Of a stretch of 64,000 bases of DNA, positions 1 to 10,257 are shown one piece after another. The stretch is from Pseudomonadota bacterium (GTDB lineage Bacteria > Myxococcota > JACRCW01 > JAFGSX01). Position numbers and translations under genes: made by a program. The notes beneath the pieces are model-generated. The model had not been told where the DNA came from. It ran no database searches and was given only the letters and a program-made list of their open reading frames with translations. The stretch lies in assembly GCA_043821645.1 (NCBI GenBank), contig JBDRCO010000072.1, positions 32,001-96,000 of the forward strand. Direction: 5' to 3'. The stretch's first letter is position 1. Each line of letters begins with the position of its first letter.

Positions 1-3000
1 CGACGATGGCGGTGGGCAGGGACGTGGGTAACCCCTGGATGGTCCCGGGGAGCAGGTGGGACAGCGCTGCGAGAGCAGAACGTCGGACATAGGACGACGT
101 CACGGGCGCCGGGAAGATCAGGCGCTGCACCGTGGCCACGCCCGCCCGGCCGAACAGGTCGTGAAACACACGACGGTGCGCCTCGATGCGCTCTGCCACC
201 TGAGGCGCGGTGGGCAGCTGGTCCAGGGCCTGCACCTCGTTGAGCGCGAAGGCCGAGGCCATGCGCTCATCGCCCGGGTCCATGCCCGCTGGCATGGGCT
301 GTCGCAGCACGAAACCGAGCACGTCGTCGGCCAGATCGTCGAGGGCAAAGGCCTCGGCACCCTCGAGCGCGATGCGGTCCGTCACCGGCGGTACCGCGAA
401 GGGCAGCTCCGTCCCCGGCACCTGGGTCCCGATCTGGGTGATCACGGAACTCACCGGGCATGCCGTGGTGGCGAGGTCGCCCAGCACCAGATCGCGCGGC
501 GTCTGGTCCCAGCCCACCGAGGCGTCACTCCGGGTTCCGAGGTCCGGGCTCCCTCCCTCGAGGGTGTTCATCCCTGCGTCATCCTCGGGCTCGACCACTC
601 CTGGCACCAGCAGACTGCTATCGCAGGCAGGGACCAGGCTCAGGCTTGCGGCCAGACCCACGACGGCACAGAGCACCAGTACACCGCGCTTGCGGCGCCG
701 CCAGGCCACGAGGACGCCCAGCAGACTGCCGACGATCAGCCAGCCTCGGGGCATACCCGCGGGCCCCGCGCTGCAGGTGCAGCCGAGGCGCAGCACACCC
801 TTGGCATCCGGGAGCCCGGCCTCGACGCCTGCGTCCACCAAGATGACGAGTCCACCTCCGTCGGGCACGCTGATGTCCACATCGACGCCGCCAGCATCCT
901 CGACCCCGGCGTCCTCCTCGGTCACGCAGACCGTGAAGCCCTGGGGATCCAGGTCCACGCTGTGATCGCAGTCATTGTCGAGGAGGTCACAGATCTCGGG
1001 CGCGCCCGGGTACACGGTGGGCTCGCTGTCGTCGCAATCACCGTCGCAGTTGGTGAAGCCGTCGGCGTCCGCATCGAAACAGGTGGCGCACATGTTGAAA
1101 GCGCCCAGCATCGCGTCGACGTAGCCGTCGCAGTTGTTGTCGATGCGATCGCAGGCTTCGCGTGCGTGGGGGTTGATGGTGTTGTCGGCATCGTTGCAGT
1201 CCCCGCAGTTGGGGCTGAAGCCATCGTTATCCAGGTCCTCCTCGCCCTCATCCACCTGGCCATCGCAATCGTCGTCGATGCCGTTACGGGGAACCTCGAG
1301 CCGGTCCGGGTTCACATCCGGATCGGTATCATCACAGTCACCCAGACAGGACACCCAGCGGTCGCCGTCTTCGTCGAAGCCCTCGTCTGCCGGTCCGTCG
1401 CAGTTATTGTCCTGGCCGTCGCAGATCTCGGGCGCCGCCTCGATCGTGCCAAAGGCGCCATGAACCGCGGCATTGTGGTCGTTGCAATCACCCTGGCAGG
1501 TGGTCACGCCATCGCCATCGATGTCGGTGTCCTCGTCGATGAGGCCATTGCAGTCGTTGTCGATGTTGTCGCCACAGACCTCGCGTCGCAGAGGACTTCG
1601 CAGCGGGTCCGTGTCGTCGCAATCTCCGGCGCAGACCGTGGCATGGTCACCGTCGGCGTCGAAGCCCTCGTCGACGGTCCCGTCGCAGTTGTTGTCAAAA
1701 CCGTCGCAGACCTCCGCGTGACCAGGGTTGATCTCGGCGAAGCGGTCATCGCAGTCGCCCTGGCCTATGGTGTAGCCGTCGCGATCCTCGTCCACGTCCT
1801 CGTCGATGGCTCCGTCGCAGTCATCGTCGATGCCGTTGTTCCAGATCTCGGCGAAGCCCGGACCCACCCGGGAGTCGCGGTCATTGCAGTCGCCGTCGCA
1901 GTTGCGGTAGCCGTCCTGATCCAGATCGTGGCAGGCGCCTCCCTCGCAGGCCCCCGCCTCGTCCACGACGCCGTCGCAGTTGTTGTCCTGGCAGTCGCAG
2001 ATCTCCACGGCACCGGGGCGATTGTGAGGATCGCCGTCCTGGCAGTCGCACTGATCCGGGGGCAAGAAGGGACAGGCGCCGCAGTCCCGGTAGCCGTCGC
2101 GGTCCAGGTCGAAGTCCTCGTCGGTGTCGCCATCGCAGTCGTTGTCCTCATCGTCGCAGGCCTCGACGTCGGGTAACACCTGTCCCACACAATCGCCCAC
2201 CGCAACGCCACCGCGGCACTCGGCCAGACCTGCCACACACAGGCCCACGCCGAGCGTGCTGCGAGGGCCGGTGTAGCAGGAGGTCTCGACACCATCGATG
2301 TCGCCGTCGCAGTCGTTGTCCTTGCCGTCGCAGATCTCGAGGTTGCCGGCGTAGATCTCGGGGTCGGTGTCATTGCAGTCACCGCCACAGGTGGTCACGC
2401 CGTCACCATCCAGATCGTGTCCCTCGTCGACCACGCCGTCGCAGTCATTGTCATAGCCATCGCAGTCATCGACGGCGATCGGGGTCACCTCGTCGCTGCA
2501 GATCGCCGAGAAGCTGCCCCCCTCGCAGCGATTCGCACCGCCCTGGCACAGGCCCACCCCCTCGGTCTCCGGGGGCTGGCCGGTGTAGCAGGCGCGGGTC
2601 AGCACGCCACCCAGACCATCGTCGTCGGGGGTCCCGTTGCAGTCGTTGTCAGCGCCGTCACAGATCTCGGTACCCCCTGGCTTGACGTCGATGCGTGTGT
2701 CATCGCAGTCGCAGGACATGGCATTGAGAAAGGCGCACAGGGCACAGGAGCGCGCGCCGTCGCCATCCGCGTCAAAGGTCCCCTCGTCGATGGTGCCGTC
2801 GCAGTCGTTGTCCTTGTTGTCGCACAGGGTCTCGTCCTGCGCCGGGTCGTGCGCGGGCAGCACCAGCGCGCCGCCGCAGGCGGACCAGCTGCCTCCGGCC
2901 TGGCAGCTCTGGGTGCCGCTGTGGCAGAGACCGCGGGGCGCGCAGCTGGCGGCATGCCCCGGGCAGTTCCCGGTGTAGGTCGCCGCGGTGACGTTGGTGC

Positions 3001-5506
3001 CTTCGAAGCACACGCGGTCCGCCACGCCGGCGTTGGGTGAACCATCGCAATTGCGATCCACAGCGTCGCAGGTCTCGGTGGCGCCAGGCTTGATGGTCGC
3101 GTCGGCATCGTTGCAGTCGCAGGCCGGCGCCGCGGGAGCACTGCAGGTCCCGCACGCGCGCACGGTGTCGTTGTCGGCATCGATGATCAGTCCATCGTCG
3201 GGGGTTCCGTCGCAGTCCTCATCCTGACCATTGCAGGTGACCTCGGGATCGGCCGGAAGGCCGACCGGGACCACCTCGCCCGCGCAGGCACCCCAGTTGG
3301 CAGGATCGCTGACGTTGGTGTTGATGGCCTGACAGGTCTGGGTGCCGCCGTGACACAGCCCGATGCCGTTGGTTCCCCCGGGTCCCGTGTAGCAGGTCCG
3401 GCTGAGGTTTTCGTCGACGCTGTTGTCGCAGTCGTTGTCCAGGGTATCGCAGGCCTCGACCCTGGCAGGACGGTTGCACCAGGCGCCGTACTGCACGTTG
3501 CTGTTGTCGTTGCACTCCGTCGCCGCGCAGGCCGGGACCTGATCGCCATCGGCGTCGGCGAAGCCATTCCAGGGTGCGCCATCGCAGTCCTGATCCACGC
3601 AGTCGCACAGCTCGGGTGCTCCGGGATAGATCGCGTTGTTGTTGTCGTTGCAGTCGCAGGGCGTGACCGTGCACCCCGTGCAGCTCAGGAAACCATCGCC
3701 ATCCACGTCGAAGGTCTCGTCGATGAGCGTGTCGCAGTCATTGTCCTGGCCATCGCAGATCTCGGGATTGCCCGGGAAGTTGTCGGGATCCGAATCATCG
3801 CAGTCGCAGTTGGCCGCGCCCAGGTAGGTCGTGCAGCCGTCGCCAGCAGCCACGTCGCAGCGCCCGACCCCGTCGCCATCGAGATCGAAGCCCTCGTTGT
3901 TGGTGCCGTCGCAATCGTTGTCCGTGGCGTCACAGACCTCGATGCTGTCCCCGGTGGAGTCCGAACATTGCTGCAGGCCGGTGACACACGCGTAGGTGCC
4001 CTCGCGACACTGATCGCTGTCCGGACCGTCGCAGGGCTGGTTGTACCAGGTCTCGCCGCTGCCATCTGCCGAGGCGGGATTGCAGTCATCGTTGGTGTTG
4101 TTGTTGCACAGGTCCACGACGTGGATGCTCTCGTTGCACTGCACACCGCTGCCATTGGAGCGGCAGCCCCAGGTGCCGTTGACGCACAGATCGGCGTCCG
4201 TGCCGTCACAGGGCTGGGTCAGCTCGGGCCAGTCCTCGTTGTTGGTGCCGTCGCAGTCGTTGTCCACCGCATCGCAGCGCTCGACCGTGTTGCTCGTGTT
4301 GTCGCTGCACCCCTGGCCCCACACGCTGCTCCCGAGATCCACGCACACGGCCGTTCCCTCGGCGCACAGATCTGTGTCCGGTCCGTCGCAGGCCACACCG
4401 AACCAGGCCTCGACGCTGCCATCGGCCGTGGCCGGGTTGCAGTCGTCGTCCACGCCGTTGCAGACATCGGGATCGGCATCGTTGGGATCCGAGCAGGCCT
4501 GGCTGCCGGCGCTGCAGGAGTAGGTGCCTTCGGGGCAGAGGTCGGCATCGGTGCCGTCGCAGGGCTGGTTGTACCAGGCCTCGGCGGACCCATCGGCGGT
4601 GGCCGGATTGCAGTCCTCGTCCTGGCCATTGCAGCGATCGACGAAGCTCAGGCTCTCGTTGCAGCGCGTGCCCGTGCCATTGGCCAGACAGACCACGGTG
4701 CCATTACTGCACAGATCGCTGTCCGTGCCATCGCAGCTGCTCCCCAGGCTGGGCCAGTCCTCGTTGTTGCTGCCGTCGCAGTCATTGTCGATGGCGTCAC
4801 ACAGCTCGACGCTGTTGCCCGTGGTGTCGCTGCAGGTCTGAGCGGACCCGGTACATTGAAAGACCCCCTCGGCGCACAGATCGGTGTCCGGGCCATCACA
4901 GGCCTGGCCGTACCAGGCCTCGGCCGAACCATTCGCGGTCGCGGGATTGCAGTCGTCGTCGATGGCGTTGCACAGGTCAGGGTCCGCGTCGTTGGGATCG
5001 GAGCAGGTCTGGACACCACCCGAGCACGCGTAGGTGCCCTCGTTGCAGAGGTCGGCATCGGTGCCATCGCAGGGTTGATTGAGCCAGGCCTCCCCCGAAC
5101 CGTCGGGTGTCGCCGGGTCACAGTCGTCATTGAGGCCGTTACACAGGTCCGGATCGGCGTCGTTGGGATCGTCGCAGACCTTCAGGGCGCCCGTGCACTG
5201 GAACAGACCTTCGGGGCAGATATCGGTGTCTGTGCCATCACAGGACTGGTGATACCAGCTCTCGGCGCTGCCGTCGGCGGTGGCAGGACTGCAGTCATTG
5301 TCCTTTCCATCGCAGATCTCGGGCCGGGCGCCGCCGACGCACGAGGCGCCTCGCACCGTGTTATCCGAGTCGTCGCAATCTCCCTGCAGGCAGCTGCAAC
5401 CGTCACCATCGCCGTCGGTGTCATTGCACTGCGCCCGCGCTGTGGTCGGCACCAGCAGCATCACACCGGCGAGCAAGGCCAGGCTCAGAAATTGTAGTGT
5501 GCGCAT
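1..5506 (-). CDS. Giant secreted Cys/Asp-rich repeat protein (MopE-like 'putative metal-binding motif' repeats) with an internal MYXO-CTERM-like motif and a second lipoprotein-type signal; 3' end runs off the window
   Basis: ATG at 5506 overlaps the upstream stop (TGATG). Translates MRTLQFLSLALLAGVMLLVPTTARA|QCND (Sec signal). About 27 E-x-C-D-x2-D-N-D-C-D units counted by eye. Bases 1020 to 2 were translated by hand with no stop. The + strand shadow ORFs 56-2176, 2417-3040 and 3350-5497 all lie in the antisense frame of this ORF. Confidence 0.9.
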   Translation of the reverse strand, partial: MRTLQFLSLALLAGVMLLVPTTARAQCNDTDGDGDGCSCLQGDCDDSDNTVRGASCVGGARPEICDGKDNDCSPATADGSAESWYHQSCDGTDTDICPEGLFQCTGALKVCDDPNDADPDLCNGLNDDCDPATPDGSGEAWLNQPCDGTDADLCNEGTYACSGGVQTCSDPNDADPDLCNAIDDDCNPATANGSAEAWYGQACDGPDTDLCAEGVFQCTGSAQTCSDTTGNSVELCDAIDNDCDGSNNEDWPSLGSSCDGTDSDLCSNGTVVCLANGTGTRCNESLSFVDRCNGQDEDCNPATADGSAEAWYNQPCDGTDADLCPEGTYSCSAGSQACSDPNDADPDVCNGVDDDCNPATADGSVEAWFGVACDGPDTDLCAEGTAVCVDLGSSVWGQGCSDNTSNTVERCDAVDNDCDGTNNEDWPELTQPCDGTDADLCVNGTWGCRSNGSGVQCNESIHVVDLCNNNTNDDCNPASADGSGETWYNQPCDGPDSDQCREGTYACVTGLQQCSDSTGDSIEVCDATDNDCDGTNNEGFDLDGDGVGRCDVAAGDGCTTYLGAANCDCDDSDPDNFPGNPEICDGQDNDCDTLIDETFDVDGDGFLSCTGCTVTPCDCNDNNNAIYPGAPELCDCVDQDCDGAPWNGFADADGDQVPACAATECNDNSNVQYGAWCNRPARVEACDTLDNDCDNSVDENLSRTCYTGPGGTNGIGLCHGGTQTCQAINTNVSDPANWGACAGEVVPVGLPADPEVTCNGQDEDCDGTPDDGLIIDADNDTVRACGTCSAPAAPACDCNDADATIKPGATETCDAVDRNCDGSPNAGVADRVCFEGTNVTAATYTGNCPGHAASCAPRGLCHSGTQSCQAGGSWSACGGALVLPAHDPAQDETLCDNKDNDCDGTIDEGTFDADGDGARSCALCAFLNAMSCDCDDTRIDVKPGGTEICDGADNDCNGTPDDDGLGGVLTRACYTGQPPETEGVGLCQGGANRCEGGSFSAICSDEVTPIAVDDCDGYDNDCDGVVDEGHDLDGDGVTTCGGDCNDTDPEIYAGNLEICDGKDNDCDGDIDGVETSCYTGPRSTLGVGLCVAGLAECRGGVAVGDCVGQVLPDVEACDDEDNDCDGDTDEDFDLDRDGYRDCGACPFLPPDQCDCQDGDPHNRPGAVEICDCQDNNCDGVVDEAGACEGGACHDLDQDGYRNCDGDCNDRDSRVGPGFAEIWNNGIDDDCDGAIDEDVDEDRDGYTIGQGDCDDRFAEINPGHAEVCDGFDNNCDGTVDEGFDADGDHATVCAGDCDDTDPLRSPLRREVCGDNIDNDCNGLIDEDTDIDGDGVTTCQGDCNDHNAAVHGAFGTIEAAPEICDGQDNNCDGPADEGFDEDGDRWVSCLGDCDDTDPDVNPDRLEVPRNGIDDDCDGQVDEGEEDLDNDGFSPNCGDCNDADNTINPHAREACDRIDNNCDGYVDAMLGAFNMCATCFDADADGFTNCDGDCDDSEPTVYPGAPEICDLLDNDCDHSVDLDPQGFTVCVTEEDAGVEDAGGVDVDISVPDGGGLVILVDAGVEAGLPDAKGVLRLGCTCSAGPAGMPRGWLIVGSLLGVLVAWRRRKRGVLVLCAVVGLAASLSLVPACDSSLLVPGVVEPEDDAGMNTLEGGSPDLGTRSDASVGWDQTPRDLVLGDLATTACPVSSVITQIGTQVPGTELPFAVPPVTDRIALEGAEAFALDDLADDVLGFVLRQPMPAGMDPGDERMASAFALNEVQALDQLPTAPQVAERIEAHRRVFHDLFGRAGVATVQRLIFPAPVTSSYVRRSALAALSHLLPGTIQGLPTSLPTAIV
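960..5400 (-). repeat. Tandem coding repeats: about 171-nt (57-aa) period at about 3900-5300 and about 135-160-nt period at about 960-2150
   Basis: The motif gcagtc(g/a)ttgtc or a variant recurs on the + strand near 3911, 4082, 4253, 4439, 4610, 4778, 4949, 5120 and 5291, and near 970, 1130, 1265, 1400, 1550, 1685, 1817, 1976 and 2135. Confidence 0.85.
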
Positions 5507-6864
5507 CAGTAGTACCCTCCCACCTCGAAGCCGAGTGTGGTCAGCCGCTCGTCGAGGGAGAAGCGGCTGGACTGCCAGCCGCCGAAGCTCGCGGTGCGCA
5601 GGCCGGCCCGCGCGAAGAACAGGGGCGCCGCGTGCAGGACCAGCCACGCCTCCCCTTGCCAGGCGGGGCGCAGCATGATGCCGCCGCCCTGCCCCACGGG
5701 TTGGCGGGCCGCCAGCACTCCCTCGACGGTGAGGAGCGGTGGCCACAGAGGTTGCACCGCGCGAGCGTGCACTTCTGCAAACAGGTAGCGCGTGCTCGGC
5801 GCAGGCAGGCAACAACCAATCTCGCTACGCTGCCAGCCCCAGCCGCCGCCGAGACCGAGCCAGGGCGCGTACGCATGATGGAACAGCATGCGCCGGTAGC
5901 TGCCGCGCAGGGTCAGATCGTCGTCGTCGATTCGGACCTCACCGCCCTCGTAGCTGCCGCTGTAAAGACCCCGGCGATAGGAGGCATCCAGCACCAGGTC
6001 GGCGAGGGGCGAGCGATTGAGCGCGGGGATGAGGCGCAGTGGCAGAACCGACGCGCTCACGCTCCACCCGGGCAGGGCTCCCGATTCGATGGGGATGACC
6101 CTGCGCAGCTGGCTGCCACCGAGATCGACCTGGCGCGAGCCCACGGAGAAGCCCGTCGCCAGGAACAGCGCAGGCACCCGCTTGCGCGCTCGTTGCAGCG
6201 AGGCCAGAGCGTCAGCCTCCCGCTGTTCCTCCTCGAGGATCTCGTCACTCGGCGACACCACCGCGGCGCGACTGTCACCGCGGGCCGTGCGCTCCTGCCA
6301 GGGCTGCGATGAGGCCGGACTCACCTCGGCCACGCCCACGTCGATGGCGACAAGCGGGGGGTCTGCATGCTGCAAGAGCACGCGGGCTTTCTGGTCGATG
6401 AGGCTCGCGATGCGCTCGGCGTCCTTGTCCTCGATGCGGTCTGCCTTGATGCCGCGGATGGGGATACTCCGCGTGGCCTTCTGACCCAGGTTCGAGTACA
6501 CCAGAACCGTGAGTCCGCGCTTGGACGCGGACAGGATGATCGCGCGCTCGGCACCGACCGCCGCGGCCAGGCGCGCCACCCCGTCGGGCATCAGCAACTG
6601 GTTGGGCCACACCCTGGTGCGTTTCTGGGCTTCGACCACGTCGGCGTGGTCGACCACGCGCTCACCAAAGCGCGCGCGCAGCGCCTTGACCAGACGCGGA
6701 TGACTATCGAGGGCCTGCTCGCGAGCCACCCCAACCACCGGCGCGACCAGGATTCGTGGAGCTGGGGCCCCCTCGTCGGCCGCGTGGAGCGGCTGCGCCA
6801 GCAGGACAGCCAGCGCCATCCCCAGCAGGAGGCTGGTCCCGAACTCTCTCTCGACGCGGAGCAT
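5506..6864 (-). CDS. Exported protein with a probable C-terminal outer-membrane beta-barrel
   Basis: Signal peptide (LLLGMALAVLLAQPLHA). The C-terminal half has alternating beta-strand patterns and ends GFEVGGYY (aromatic beta-signal). Start re-chosen at ATG 6864. Confidence 0.65.
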   Translation of the reverse strand: MLRVEREFGTSLLLGMALAVLLAQPLHAADEGAPAPRILVAPVVGVAREQALDSHPRLVKALRARFGERVVDHADVVEAQKRTRVWPNQLLMPDGVARLAAAVGAERAIILSASKRGLTVLVYSNLGQKATRSIPIRGIKADRIEDKDAERIASLIDQKARVLLQHADPPLVAIDVGVAEVSPASSQPWQERTARGDSRAAVVSPSDEILEEEQREADALASLQRARKRVPALFLATGFSVGSRQVDLGGSQLRRVIPIESGALPGWSVSASVLPLRLIPALNRSPLADLVLDASYRRGLYSGSYEGGEVRIDDDDLTLRGSYRRMLFHHAYAPWLGLGGGWGWQRSEIGCCLPAPSTRYLFAEVHARAVQPLWPPLLTVEGVLAARQPVGQGGGIMLRPAWQGEAWLVLHAAPLFFARAGLRTASFGGWQSSRFSLDERLTTLGFEVGGYY

Positions 6865-6946
6865 GCAGCACCTCGCTGTCAGGTCGCACCCATTATACGT
6901 GACGGAGCGGGAGCCTGCACTCGAGCTTGCCGACCTGCCCGGCCCT

Positions 6947-8449
6947 TCAGAGAACAGCGACGCCACCATTCCCCCGCGCCAGACTCTGCAGGTCGACCCG
7001 GGTCAGGGGGCGCGACACCTGCAGCACCATGTCGCGAATCTGCTGCGCCTCACGCCGGATCTCGCGCCAGTGCTCGACGATCCCGGCGCCATCAAAGCCC
7101 GCGGAGAACAGCCGCTCAAAGATATCGCGCAGCGGAAGTGTGCCGTCCCCCAGGCTCAGGTGGCCGTCGCTGAGCCCATCATTGTCATGCAGCTGCAGGT
7201 GCACGATACGGCGCTGGGCCCGGTCCAGGAGCTGCAGCAATTCCTCGGTGTAGTCGAGACCGTTGCGGTGAAGATGGGCATAGCCAAGATCCAGCGCCAC
7301 CTGTGCCCCTGGGATCTGCTCCGCGGTCCGAGCCAGGCGTTCCGGCCCGACCTGCCGCCCGTAGTCGGGGCCATTGCCGATGGCGAGATCCACTCCGCTG
7401 TCCGCCGCGCGCGAGGCCAGCTCCTGCATCAGCGGCAGGTCATCCACGCACAGCGCTGGCACCACCAGCAGACAGGCTCCCACGTCGACCGCGAAGCGGA
7501 CCAGCTCCTGTCCCAGATCGCGGCCCGCGGTTCCAGCCAGGGAGACCAGCGGCGCCAACACACTCAGCTGCAGACCCATGCCGCTGGCCATGGAATGAAA
7601 ACGGGCGCGGGCGCGGGCGTCGATGTCCGAGGGCATGAAATTGTCGAAGAAGACCTCGAACGCGCTCAGGCCCTGTCGGGAGGTGTGCCGCAGCTCGTCC
7701 TCGACGAACAGGCCATTGAAGCGGCAGCTTTGCAAGCCCAGCCACAGGAAGCGGCGTTGCTGCATGACCACGCCCTGGCGTCGGCGCAGCAGGACGCCCA
7801 GAGCATGCGTCGCCTGGGGCAGCTCGGGGAGCAGGGTCACGGCCTCGCCCACGGCGTGGGTGGCATGCGCGTCGCTGCCAGCCAGGGCCAAGCCGTCGAT
7901 CTTCTGGCACCAGCGCGCGGCAAGGTCGTTGCGATTGTTCAGGTCGCGGCGCCCGTTGACCACCTCGACAGCGTCGATGAGGTTGGGTCCTCCGAAGGGC
8001 GCTCCGTGGTTGCGGTGCCTGAACGGATGGGCCGCAACCAGGATCCCCCCGCGCTCGACCACGAAGCGCCTCAGATCCCAGGGGTCGGCGCGCAGCAGGT
8101 CGATGCCATCGAGGGCGCTCGGATCCAGGCCCAGCACCAGCACGTCGTCCATGGTGCGCGGGATGCGGTACTCGAGCCCGAAATAGATCTTTGGTGCCCC
8201 GGGCAGGTGCTCGGCTGCAGCGCACGCCGCATCGAAGCCACGCCGCACGGTACTGGCCAGCTGCTGCTGGTCCATGGCCAGAACAGCGCTCTGCTGGCGC
8301 AGCTCGTCCGGCACGAACTGTGCGGTCACACACAGGCCTGCCAGACCATTGTGCGCCGCCGCCGCCACCATTTCCCCGGCCGTGGCCACCGCTTCCGGAG
8401 TGCACTCGGCGGTATGCACGTGCAGGTCAATGGCAAAGGGGCTCGACAT
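6947..8449 (-). CDS. PHP-domain protein fused to a xylose-isomerase-like (AP endonuclease 2) TIM barrel
   Basis: PHP motifs DLHVHT, AHPFR, EVVNG and GSDAH. C-terminal DLG..H, LHDNDGLSDGHL.LGDG and GIVE motifs. Start at ATG 8449 (MSSPFAID). Confidence 0.75.
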   Translation of the reverse strand: MSSPFAIDLHVHTAECTPEAVATAGEMVAAAAHNGLAGLCVTAQFVPDELRQQSAVLAMDQQQLASTVRRGFDAACAAAEHLPGAPKIYFGLEYRIPRTMDDVLVLGLDPSALDGIDLLRADPWDLRRFVVERGGILVAAHPFRHRNHGAPFGGPNLIDAVEVVNGRRDLNNRNDLAARWCQKIDGLALAGSDAHATHAVGEAVTLLPELPQATHALGVLLRRRQGVVMQQRRFLWLGLQSCRFNGLFVEDELRHTSRQGLSAFEVFFDNFMPSDIDARARARFHSMASGMGLQLSVLAPLVSLAGTAGRDLGQELVRFAVDVGACLLVVPALCVDDLPLMQELASRAADSGVDLAIGNGPDYGRQVGPERLARTAEQIPGAQVALDLGYAHLHRNGLDYTEELLQLLDRAQRRIVHLQLHDNDGLSDGHLSLGDGTLPLRDIFERLFSAGFDGAGIVEHWREIRREAQQIRDMVLQVSRPLTRVDLQSLARGNGGVAVL

Positions 8450-8709: not shown

Positions 8710-10257
8710 ATGCTCGAAGGGATGCGCAGGCACGCAAATTCGTTCATCACCACCGTGATGTTCGGGATCATCATCATCGTTTTCGTATTCAGCTTCGGGC
8801 CGGGCTCTGCGCGCTATTGCGGCAATGCGCTGCCCATGGCGGCCGCGGTCAATGGCCGCGCCATCACCGCCGCGGAGTTCCAGCAGCAATACGCTCGTAC
8901 TTTCGAGCGGATGCAGCAGTACCGGCCCAACTATTCTCTCGACACCGCCAAGGCCGAGAACCTGAAGAAGAGCGTGCTGGACCAGCTCATCGGGCGCGAA
9001 CTCCTGGTGCAGGAAGGCCAGCGCCGCGGGCTCACCATCGCCGACGAGGAACTGGCACGCGAGATCGTGAACATGCCGATGTTCCAGCAGGAAGGCGCGT
9101 TCGATCGCGACCTGTACCGCCGCTATGCGACCAGCCTCAACCTGTCCGAGGCCGGCTTCGAAGAGGAGCTGCGACGCGACCTGCTGGCCCAGCGCATGCG
9201 CGAGATCCTGCAGGACACCGTGGCCGTCAGCGGAACAGAGATCCGATCCCTGTGGGAGCGACGCAACAACCGCGCTGATCTGTGGTTCGTCAAGGTCGAT
9301 CCCTTTCATTTCCGCAAGGAGATCCAGGTCAGCGATGACGAGGCCAAGACCTTTGCCACGGAGCAGCGGGCCCGCGTCGAGGACAGCTACAACCAGCATG
9401 CCACCCGGTACAACAAGCCCGAGCGTGTGCGTGCGCGCCACATCCTGATCAAGGTCGCCGAGGATGCGCCCGATGCTGAGCAGCAAAAGGCCCAGCAGCG
9501 TATCGCCGAGGCCAAGAAGCGCATCGCGGATGGTGAGGACTTCGCTGCGGTGGCCAAGGCACTCAGTGAAGACTCGAGCGCGGCCCAGGGTGGCGACCTC
9601 GGCGCGCAGCCCCGCGGCTCCTGGGTCAAGCCCTTTGAAGACGCGGCCTTTGCTCTGGAGCCAGGCGCGGTCTCCGACGTGGTGCGCACCCAGTTCGGTT
9701 TTCACATCATCAAGGTGGACGCCAAGGTTGCGGCCGAAACCAAGACTGTCGACGAGGTGGCGGTGGAGATCGCCCGCGACGTCCTGACCGAGGATCGCGC
9801 CAAGGAGAAGGCCAAGGCGGCCGCCGAACTATGGCTGGCCCGGCTCAAGGACGCCGCGGATCCCGAGAGCCTCAATCCGCCGGCAGAGGATCAGAAGCCC
9901 GACCCCTTCGCGCCCAAGGTCGACAGTACCGGCACCTTCGAGAAGGACGCGCGCTACGTGCCCAAGGTCGGTATTGCCGGCGACCTGGCCACCAAGGCCT
10001 TCGAGCTCACCGTCGAGGCCCCGGTCCCGGCAGCCCCCATCGAGGTCCAGGGACGCTACTACGCGATCAAGCTCAAGGACCGGCAGATGCCGGATCCCGC
10101 CAGCTTCGACACGGACAAGGAGCGCCTGCGCACCGAGCTGATCTCGCGACGCCAGATGAGCGTGGTCGAGGACTTCATCAAGGTCCTGCGCGAGGTGGCG
10201 CGGGTCGAGCTCAACCCCGGCCTGGTCTCCTACGACGACGAGAGCAACCCCACCTGA
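8710..10257 (+). CDS. ppiD: PpiD/SurA-type membrane-anchored peptidyl-prolyl isomerase/chaperone
   Basis: N-terminal TM helix and SurA-N domain (AAVNG..I). Parvulin motifs RARHILI, FAAVAKALSED, GGDLG, FEDAAF and TQFGFHIIK. GGAG upstream of ATG 8710. Confidence 0.88.
   Translation: MLEGMRRHANSFITTVMFGIIIIVFVFSFGPGSARYCGNALPMAAAVNGRAITAAEFQQQYARTFERMQQYRPNYSLDTAKAENLKKSVLDQLIGRELLVQEGQRRGLTIADEELAREIVNMPMFQQEGAFDRDLYRRYATSLNLSEAGFEEELRRDLLAQRMREILQDTVAVSGTEIRSLWERRNNRADLWFVKVDPFHFRKEIQVSDDEAKTFATEQRARVEDSYNQHATRYNKPERVRARHILIKVAEDAPDAEQQKAQQRIAEAKKRIADGEDFAAVAKALSEDSSAAQGGDLGAQPRGSWVKPFEDAAFALEPGAVSDVVRTQFGFHIIKVDAKVAAETKTVDEVAVEIARDVLTEDRAKEKAKAAAELWLARLKDAADPESLNPPAEDQKPDPFAPKVDSTGTFEKDARYVPKVGIAGDLATKAFELTVEAPVPAAPIEVQGRYYAIKLKDRQMPDPASFDTDKERLRTELISRRQMSVVEDFIKVLREVARVELNPGLVSYDDESNPT

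Follow-up and report, generated by a model that had tools for sequence, protein, structure and literature searches.

A conserved gene in which a MYXO-CTERM tag runs into a lipoprotein signal, a candidate precursor of two lipid-anchored envelope proteins in Myxococcota

Internal MYXO-CTERM motifs were noted as rare by Guo, Haft and Wall (mBio 2025, PMC11980579), who proposed that in such proteins the N-terminal portion is processed. MXAN_5598 of Myxococcus xanthus is described there as a probable fusion of two genes, for an adhesin and for an outer-membrane beta-barrel/OmpA protein, with an N portion proposed to be processed and surface-anchored; the proposal cites work on LPXTG and on the archaeal ArtA substrate HVO_0405. 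The latter, from Haloferax volcanii, is reported to be a fusion of two once independent genes with a central tripartite signal, and to be cut in an ArtA- and lipidation-dependent manner (PMC7157517). The gene considered here, hereafter the fusion gene, lies on the minus strand at the beginning of a 64,000-nucleotide (nt) stretch of DNA (the window; G000:C72:32001-96000, where G000 is the source genome, the 140-contig assembly GCA_043821645.1, and C72 its contig JBDRCO010000072.1), and in it a MYXO-CTERM-type tag continues, within one reading frame, into a lipoprotein signal. By taking into account the sequence comparisons described below, we regard it as rather probable that this is a genuine and anciently fused gene, and that its secreted precursor would be cut by myxosortase and signal peptidase II into two lipid-anchored proteins.

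The product has in common with MXAN_5598 that its large N part is adhesin-like, that a MYXO-CTERM motif stands in mid-chain and that a second envelope protein comes after it. As far as a comparison of descriptions goes, it differs in its C part, a VWA lipoprotein here and an outer-membrane beta-barrel with an OmpA domain there, and the description of MXAN_5598 given in the relevant passages of PMC11980579 mentions no second signal peptide, lipobox or conserved family. Given these published internal motifs, the idea has less novelty than a preliminary description of the window, made from the sequence alone, had implied. The TraA-TraB pair of M. xanthus is also similar, in that a Cys-rich MYXO-CTERM receptor is encoded beside a partner envelope protein with overlapping open reading frames (ORFs), as in the split form of the present gene (locus L042, overlap GTGA). 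It differs in consisting of two genes with an OmpA-type partner, as described in PMC11980579, whereas one frame, a lipoprotein partner and, instead, a barrel-like protein encoded upstream are found here. HVO_0405 is likewise a gene fusion with a C-terminal-type sorting signal in mid-chain, and cleavage there was experimentally shown; however, it is archaeal, depends on PGF-CTERM and ArtA, is called strain-specific, and in the portions of that report dealing with it no second export signal is mentioned after the tag (PMC7157517).

Ordinary lipoprotein precursors, which are acted upon by Lgt and then by Lsp (e.g. MBI4819458.1, P0013 in our set), resemble the second half of the fusion protein in having a basic n-region, an uncharged h-region, a Gly, Ala or Ser before the Cys, a disordered tether and a folded domain, but here the signal stands some 1600 residues away from the N terminus, and in the compact forms the tail of the tag before it serves as its n-region. 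Flavivirus-type polyproteins carry internal signal peptides that are cut by the host signal peptidase, and alternate stop-transfer and re-start helices so that one chain places several domains across the membrane; they differ in using the eukaryotic endoplasmic reticulum and cuts of the signal peptidase I type, and they have neither lipid anchors nor a sortase-like enzyme. To our knowledge, exported polyproteins cut apart by the envelope sorting machinery are not generally attributed to bacteria, and in the literature searched we found no report of a signal peptide or lipobox right behind an internal tag, of a conserved family of such proteins, or of a bacterial polyprotein precedent.

The part of the fusion gene inside the window occupies nt 1-5503 of the minus strand, with the start ATG at nt 5503-5501 and the frame open at the window edge; in the DNA of the same contig it ends at a stop 994 nt past window position 1, at G000:C72:31006-31008 (position 9006 of locus L002). 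The gene has 2166 codons, and its product, read from MRTLQF at nt 5503, is a protein of 2166 residues (database copy P0003) with the N terminus MRTLQFLSLALLAGVMLLVPTTARAQ and with the lipobox Cys as residue 1628. The preliminary description had placed GCTCS from nt 784, RRRKR at nt 700-686 and the Cys at nt 625-623 (residue about 1628), and had the frame run from the tag into the second signal without a stop. On the minus-strand reading all of these positions are exact (GCTCS, GGC TGC ACC TGC AGC, nt 784-770; RRRKR, CGG CGC CGC AAG CGC, nt 700-686; Cys1628, TGC, nt 625-623), the frame reads ...LRLGCTCSAGPAGMPRGWLIVGSLLGVLVAWRRRKRGVLVLCAVVGLAASLSLVPACDSS... with zero stops between GCTCS, RRRKR and Cys1628, and it does continue to a stop, which lies beyond the window.

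From its N terminus the protein begins with a Sec-type signal peptide, MRTLQFLSLALLAGVMLLVPTTARA followed by Q (nt 5429-5503; judged by eye), and continues with a Cys- and Asp-rich repeat region of about 1550 residues (nt 785-5428), which would be exported, matches PF11617 and ends in a DAG-rich linker. The internal MYXO-CTERM-type tag follows at nt 686-784 and consists of GCTCS (Cys codons at nt 781-779 and 775-773), a spacer, the transmembrane helix WLIVGSLLGVLVAW (nt 742-701) and the cluster RRRKR, in agreement with the MYXO-CTERM signature of a GCxC-type Cys motif, a helix and an Arg-rich cluster. It departs from the MYXO-CTERM rule in not standing at the extreme C terminus, as 561 residues lie after the matched stretch. 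RRRKR (nt 686-700) forms a basic loop, predicted to be cytoplasmic from its sequence, that is common to the tail of the tag and to the n-region of the second signal; the latter (nt 623-685, recognized from sequence and from the comparison of junctions) comprises the h-region GVLVLCAVVGLAASLSLVPA and the lipobox Cys, with 20 uncharged residues between the basic n-region and Ala-Cys. Behind Cys1628 lies a low-complexity tether (nt 467-622), corresponding to C-part residues 1-53, for which the predicted local distance difference test score (pLDDT) is below 50, and then the beginning of the folded C part (nt 1-466, from the predicted structure), most of which lies past the window start.

The MYXO-CTERM model TIGR03901, with a curated cut-off of 20 bits, scored the tag at 22.1 bits in a 72-residue fragment and at 23.1 bits in the genome search, and the junction in the fusion gene is above chance. 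The search of G000 returned 92 rows, of which the best 72 were retained (20 rows below 15 bits being dropped) for measuring the distance to the next in-frame stop. A stop occurs within 41 residues after the tag in 67 of these best 72 rows, and internal tags among the 45 rows at or over the cut-off number two, namely the fusion gene and C31:84347. Three weaker internal rows were found at C31:25626, C106:56325 and C113:72012, the last of which, a partial match without helix or Arg cluster, is probably spurious. A read-through MYXO-CTERM tag in this genome is rare, yet not unique. At G000:C106:56325-56618 a weak MYXO-CTERM-like tag (15.1 bits) closes a frame of 1416 codons and is followed by KQPGPRWRRRRWWLAGVLILGMAC and only 71 further residues; this may be a short third example of a junction or a decayed one.

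The fusion recurs well outside the source genome. Among 41 genomes searched, the best relatives of the 539-residue C part came from five genomes that belong to a different family within the phylum, in each case within an open frame (1832-2016 residues) and with an identical junction layout in all five. A scan of contigs, with one genome per species, gave 20 orthologous loci at an expectation value of at most 1e-53, one of them cut by a contig end before the junction; of the 19 informative loci, 18 are fused, five of these 18 being in the same genomes as the five relatives just mentioned. One fused orthologue, L037, is in the complete isolate genome CP120527.1 of Myxococcaceae bacterium GXIMD 01537. 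A HMMER search of 1.84 billion representatives returned 3630 proteins at expectation values up to 0.001, most of which share the VWA part only; four further fused representatives, the junctions of which were read, are P0005, P0006, P0008 and P0011, and the P0005 cluster contains seven members, all of 1935 residues, on 10 contigs.

Junction statistics were obtained on 19 fused junctions (G000 and the 18 loci), to which the split form was added for the lipobox (n = 20). A CxC motif is present in 19/19 (CGC in 18, CTC in G000), and with the four representatives, where P0008 has CxxC, one or the other is retained in 23/23. Past it come, always in this order, a short spacer, a hydrophobic helix, a loop of net positive charge, a stretch free of charges and a Cys. 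The loop has 4-36 residues, with 4-10 Lys or Arg versus 0-4 Asp or Glu, and is net positive in 19/19; in P0008 it has about 55 residues. The proposal that RRRKR serves both as tag tail and as n-region fits the compact loops resembling that of G000 (4-6 residues, almost purely basic; 9/19), but it fails as a rule for the family, the loops of the other 10/19 having 9-36 residues. The second hydrophobic stretch is uncharged and has 12-26 residues including the Cys (median, 16, in the 19 junctions), so that in size it matches the core of a signal peptide and not a lasting membrane helix. The Cys that follows it, the counterpart of Cys1628, is kept in 20/20, with Gly, Ala or Ser before it in 19/20. 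By sequence, the junction signals are recognizable though loose, what is strictly kept being the Cys pair, the two hydrophobic stretches and the positive loop. The fragments from L043 and L046 also matched NF058595, a recent NCBIfam model with the name ‘lipo-invert putative C-terminal anchoring domain’, but weakly (13.2 and 9.8 bits, where the cut-off is 37); this model may describe something related.

The exception among the informative loci is a natural split form. In L042, gene 1 ends with ...VSCGCGSSEARSSWWVTGLALALAFALRRRRS (ALRRRRS) and a TGA, its terminal tag scoring 23.8 bits, while the GTG start of gene 2 shares bases with this stop (GTGA), and gene 2 reads VKRFLVLLLPLACTRLEVSG, with the start VKRFLVLLLPLAC. 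At L042 6900-6940 the tail of the tag has the Arg codons CGG AGG AGA CGG, which contain GGAGGAG, a Shine-Dalgarno sequence for the lipoprotein gene, and a one-base shift alone separates the split from the fused form. The two halves are separate in this lineage because L042 has a stop after RRRRS and a lipoprotein start of its own, and by sequence the translationally coupled genes of this one lineage encode, in the usual way, a MYXO-CTERM protein and a lipoprotein. Stand-alone lipoprotein homologues of the C part, which the preliminary description named as a check on its reading, are at hand in L042 and in P0013 (MBI4819458.1), a near-identical protein from another assembly, which is annotated as complete with 507 residues on a 74-kb contig; both start with (M/V)KRFLVLLLPLAC and have the lipobox Cys in the same alignment column as the internal Cys1628. 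The paralogue P0014 begins with ...LASAC, and distant paralogues are commonly stand-alone, a crude lipobox-like start being found in 88 of the best 150 matches. In a maximum-likelihood tree of the C parts (21 rows, with P0014 on a long branch as the outgroup) fused forms make up the two deep clades, and L042 falls inside a clade of 100/99 support. An old fusion with one later split would be the simplest reading, on a rooting that is not secure.

The N part matches the MopE-type putative metal-binding motif of PF11617 in 15 stretches with 363.7 bits (cut-off 27), and its last 420 residues are 51-63% identical between orthologues. The C part matched no Pfam family, VWA included, at expectation values up to 0.01, and no NCBIfam family; its relatives are named VWA domain-containing proteins by database sources. 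The structure predicted from a 30-row alignment (mean pLDDT 87.3) divides its 539 residues into 53 disordered ones, a family-specific alpha/beta domain, a VWA domain and a beta-sandwich. Foldseek placed inter-alpha-inhibitor heavy chain 1 and integrin beta headpieces at the top (expectation value about 2e-9, probability 1.00), with a template-modelling (TM) score of only 0.26-0.29 over the whole model, so that the likeness is one at the level of domains. A motif of the metal-ion-dependent adhesion site type (DNSAS; DxSxS...T...D) is present, with D281, S283 and D385 invariant and S285 and T318 nearly so in 30 sequences. The layout is that of a tethered lipoprotein, because the disordered residues precede the folded VWA body, and the C part is predicted from the model to be a tethered, integrin-beta-like VWA lipoprotein. 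A complex prediction, from alignments, of the last 420 residues of the N part with C-part residues 55-539 gave a score of 0.09 (mark, 0.32), which speaks neither for nor against binding.

The enzymes called for by the preliminary description are encoded in G000, with a qualification for one of them. The lgt product scored 135.9 bits (cut-off 118.9), and two lspA genes lie side by side at G000:C118:155151-156343 (89.4 and 84.9 bits; cut-off 73.95), a redundancy that a title in the reference list of PMC11980579 also indicates for M. xanthus, where it is tied to antibiotic TA. Type II secretion is represented by adjacent gspD and gspE genes, both over their cut-offs. The only myxosortase-like CPBP gene is split by contig ends into L029 (C102:3-758) and C26:59292-59519. 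The two pieces overlap by about 35 identical residues, and contigs C102 and C26 probably abut.

In the mechanism that we propose, the N-terminal signal peptide would export the approximately 1550 residues of Cys- and Asp-rich repeats, transfer would be halted by the MYXO-CTERM helix with RRRKR left in the cytoplasm, and the second hydrophobic stretch would re-insert as a reverse signal to export the 539-residue VWA part. Lgt and signal peptidase II would then lipidate Cys1628 and cut before it, and myxosortase would cut the N part at the lipidated CxC motif, giving two separate lipid-anchored envelope proteins, with a hairpin of about 50 residues to be discarded. Thereafter, the N part would take the type II secretion route described for MYXO-CTERM proteins in PMC11980579. 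What stood of the polyprotein reading of the preliminary description is the conserved fusion of tag and lipoprotein signal, with a stand-alone orthologue and the enzyme genes beside it, and cleavage itself is what we infer from them. Judged on sequence, the precursor reading is plausible and is strengthened by the comparative evidence, but it is not proven.

Several observations weigh against it. TIGR03901 gave only 17.3 bits, below the cut-off, when the 1834-residue G000 translation was scanned whole; among the 18 fused junction fragments its cut-off was reached by only 7, or 9 with TIGR03382, and 3/18 had no match at all in the scan with MYXO-CTERM models. Of two lipobox patterns, a PROSITE-type one and a strict one, [LVI][ASTVI][GAS]C, the G000 lipobox, LVPAC, with Pro at −2, fits neither, and in the 20 sequences the former fits 15 and the latter only 4, L044 having His at −1. 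The split CPBP gene scored best with MrtP (112.8 bits, cut-off 250) and then with MrtC (98.6 bits, cut-off 195), below both because the contig ends cut the gene. No report of Lgt or Lsp acting on an internal signal was found in the literature searched, and the fusion-first direction is not secure because the outgroup branch is long.

That two genes only look fused, a stop having been deleted by an indel of assembly or sequencing, might be suspected of a 140-contig assembly in which a stop lies 17-23 codons past RRRKR in both other frames and in which one base is the whole difference between split and fused forms. Yet the fused frame is found in 18/19 informative loci from independent assemblies, the complete isolate genome included, and in the seven equal-length members of one cluster. 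A Logan contig of run X1, which may be the source sample, spans nt 336-1100 with 0 differences and 0 gaps; this includes the interval nt 600-800, over which the preliminary description had asked for read mapping. Contigs of a second study (X2) match nt 437-626 and 717-947 without differences and leave the loop unbridged; the contigs of X2, X4 and X6 all fail to bridge nt 627-716, and that of X1 alone does. With the same junction recurring in orthologous loci of independent assemblies, it is not an assembly error, and to the deleted stop we give next to no credence. In RNA runs X11-X13 next to none of the sampled words were present, which has no bearing on expression. It is also highly unlikely, in our estimate, that the VWA lipoprotein arises mainly by initiation within the frame, which in G000 would take place at the GTG at nt 709-707 and give MAWRRRKRGVLVL..., with the read-through fusion as a by-product. 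An in-frame ATG, GTG or TTG does occur in or just past the first helix in 5/6 orthologues inspected, and the split form uses just such a coupled GTG with its Shine-Dalgarno sequence inside Arg codons; but G016 has no such codon ahead of the basic loop, no Shine-Dalgarno-like sequence was seen by eye upstream of GTG 709-707 in G000, chance alone should put Val and Leu codons into a GC-rich helix, and the full-length product persists and must still be dealt with. An internal start codon conserved for the C part was considered as a candidate and is not supported by the inspection of orthologues, G016 having none.

The remaining alternatives accept the fusion and question the cuts. Only one of them might take place, for instance if myxosortase frees the N part while an uncut helix-loop-helix hairpin holds the VWA part in the inner membrane. 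Such partial processing would accommodate the atypical lipoboxes (G000 with Pro at −2, L044 with His at −1, and few fits to the strict pattern), the three fused tags without a model match and the silence of the literature searched on Lsp and internal signals. We consider it rather unlikely in view of the Cys kept after the second stretch in every sequence, the Gly, Ala or Ser before it in all but one, the split orthologue, which is an ordinary lipoprotein precursor, and second stretches that go down to 12-13 residues, short for a lasting membrane helix. If neither cut were made, the product would be a two-pass protein of the inner membrane, with both domains in the periplasm, a permanent hairpin, and cysteines used otherwise, e.g. 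in a stapling disulfide. The hairpin does obey the positive-inside rule in 19/19 junctions, and every cysteine would face the periplasm. The first element, however, matches a model built on cleaved C-terminal tags, in one lineage each half has its own gene, the first stopping after RRRRS and the second carrying its own lipoprotein signal, and the loop drifts freely in length and sequence while both Cys motifs stay; an uncut protein has, in our opinion, only a small chance of being the right description.

Upstream of the fusion gene, an ORF of 487 codons at nt 5506-6969 of the minus strand (likely start, 6864) encodes a protein with a signal peptide and a GGYY end, and its stop codon TGA shares bases with the start codon of the fusion gene (TGATG), to which it is thus translationally coupled. 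Homologues occupy the same position, with overlapping stop and start, in 7/8 loci of the clade nearest G000 and in 0/11 loci of the other clade. The C-terminal half of the product resembles outer-membrane beta-barrel clusters in a lead from the ESM Atlas, so that from structural models it is probably an outer-membrane beta-barrel protein, which may be a third component of the system. Directly downstream in G000, just past the window start and on the same strand, lie mreB, mreC, a gene for a PBP2-type transpeptidase and rodA (L002 2505-8903, that is G000:C72:24505-30903, minus strand). A link between the fusion gene and these cell-shape genes was dropped, as the neighbourhood is not kept: a tblastn search found none of the four in the flanks of the 19 orthologous loci (up to 7 kb on each side, less at contig ends). 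MXAN_5598, for its part, is reported to sit beside ftsA and ftsZ (PMC11980579).

Two further frames of G000, L111 (G000:C31:24903-31532) and L112 (G000:C31:83657-89320), are paralogous giant ORFs with a tag-to-signal junction, of a family unrelated to the fusion gene. Each opens with a short module in which a signal peptide, a YD-type repeat and a linker precede a MYXO-CTERM-like tag (16.5 bits in L111, 22.4 bits in L112); a basic loop and a signal of the signal-peptidase-I (non-lipoprotein) type, ...LALAPAARA followed by Q, come after the tag, and the remaining 1600-1900 residues contain DUF6531 and 7-10 RHS repeats, with a beta-helix region in L111 only. A more general proposal, which we put forward tentatively and with somewhat less than even confidence, is that tag, basic loop and signal peptide form a portable cut-here cassette for secreted polyproteins of Myxococcota, ancestral in the VWA-fusion family. 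As the two RHS-repeat proteins carry it with an ordinary signal-peptidase-I-type signal, the cassette would be restricted neither to a single protein family nor to a single signal peptidase.

If the cassette reading is true, a single precursor would be the source of two proteins, equal in number and different in their lipid anchoring, and of a free hairpin of about 50 residues, and the products might possibly assemble with the co-translated barrel-like protein encoded upstream. Lgt is named by Guo et al. as the candidate enzyme for MYXO-CTERM lipidation (PMC11980579), and the fusion family would offer a natural reporter for which enzyme carries it out, because both cysteines stand on one hairpin in mirror orientation. 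It would also provide a handle on myxosortase and on the lipidation step, because the shift in size from precursor to products is large, and a culturable test organism is possible because one orthologue lies in the complete isolate genome CP120527.1. For annotation, a rule for tag-signal fusions could take the place of calls of frameshifts or of two-pass membrane proteins. What to expect of the two products can be read from the natural split version, and with this family it would be seen that sorting tags and signal peptides are able to work in mid-chain as paired stop-and-restart elements; a conserved family in which a C-terminal-type tag runs into a lipoprotein signal would change the view of exported polyproteins in bacteria.

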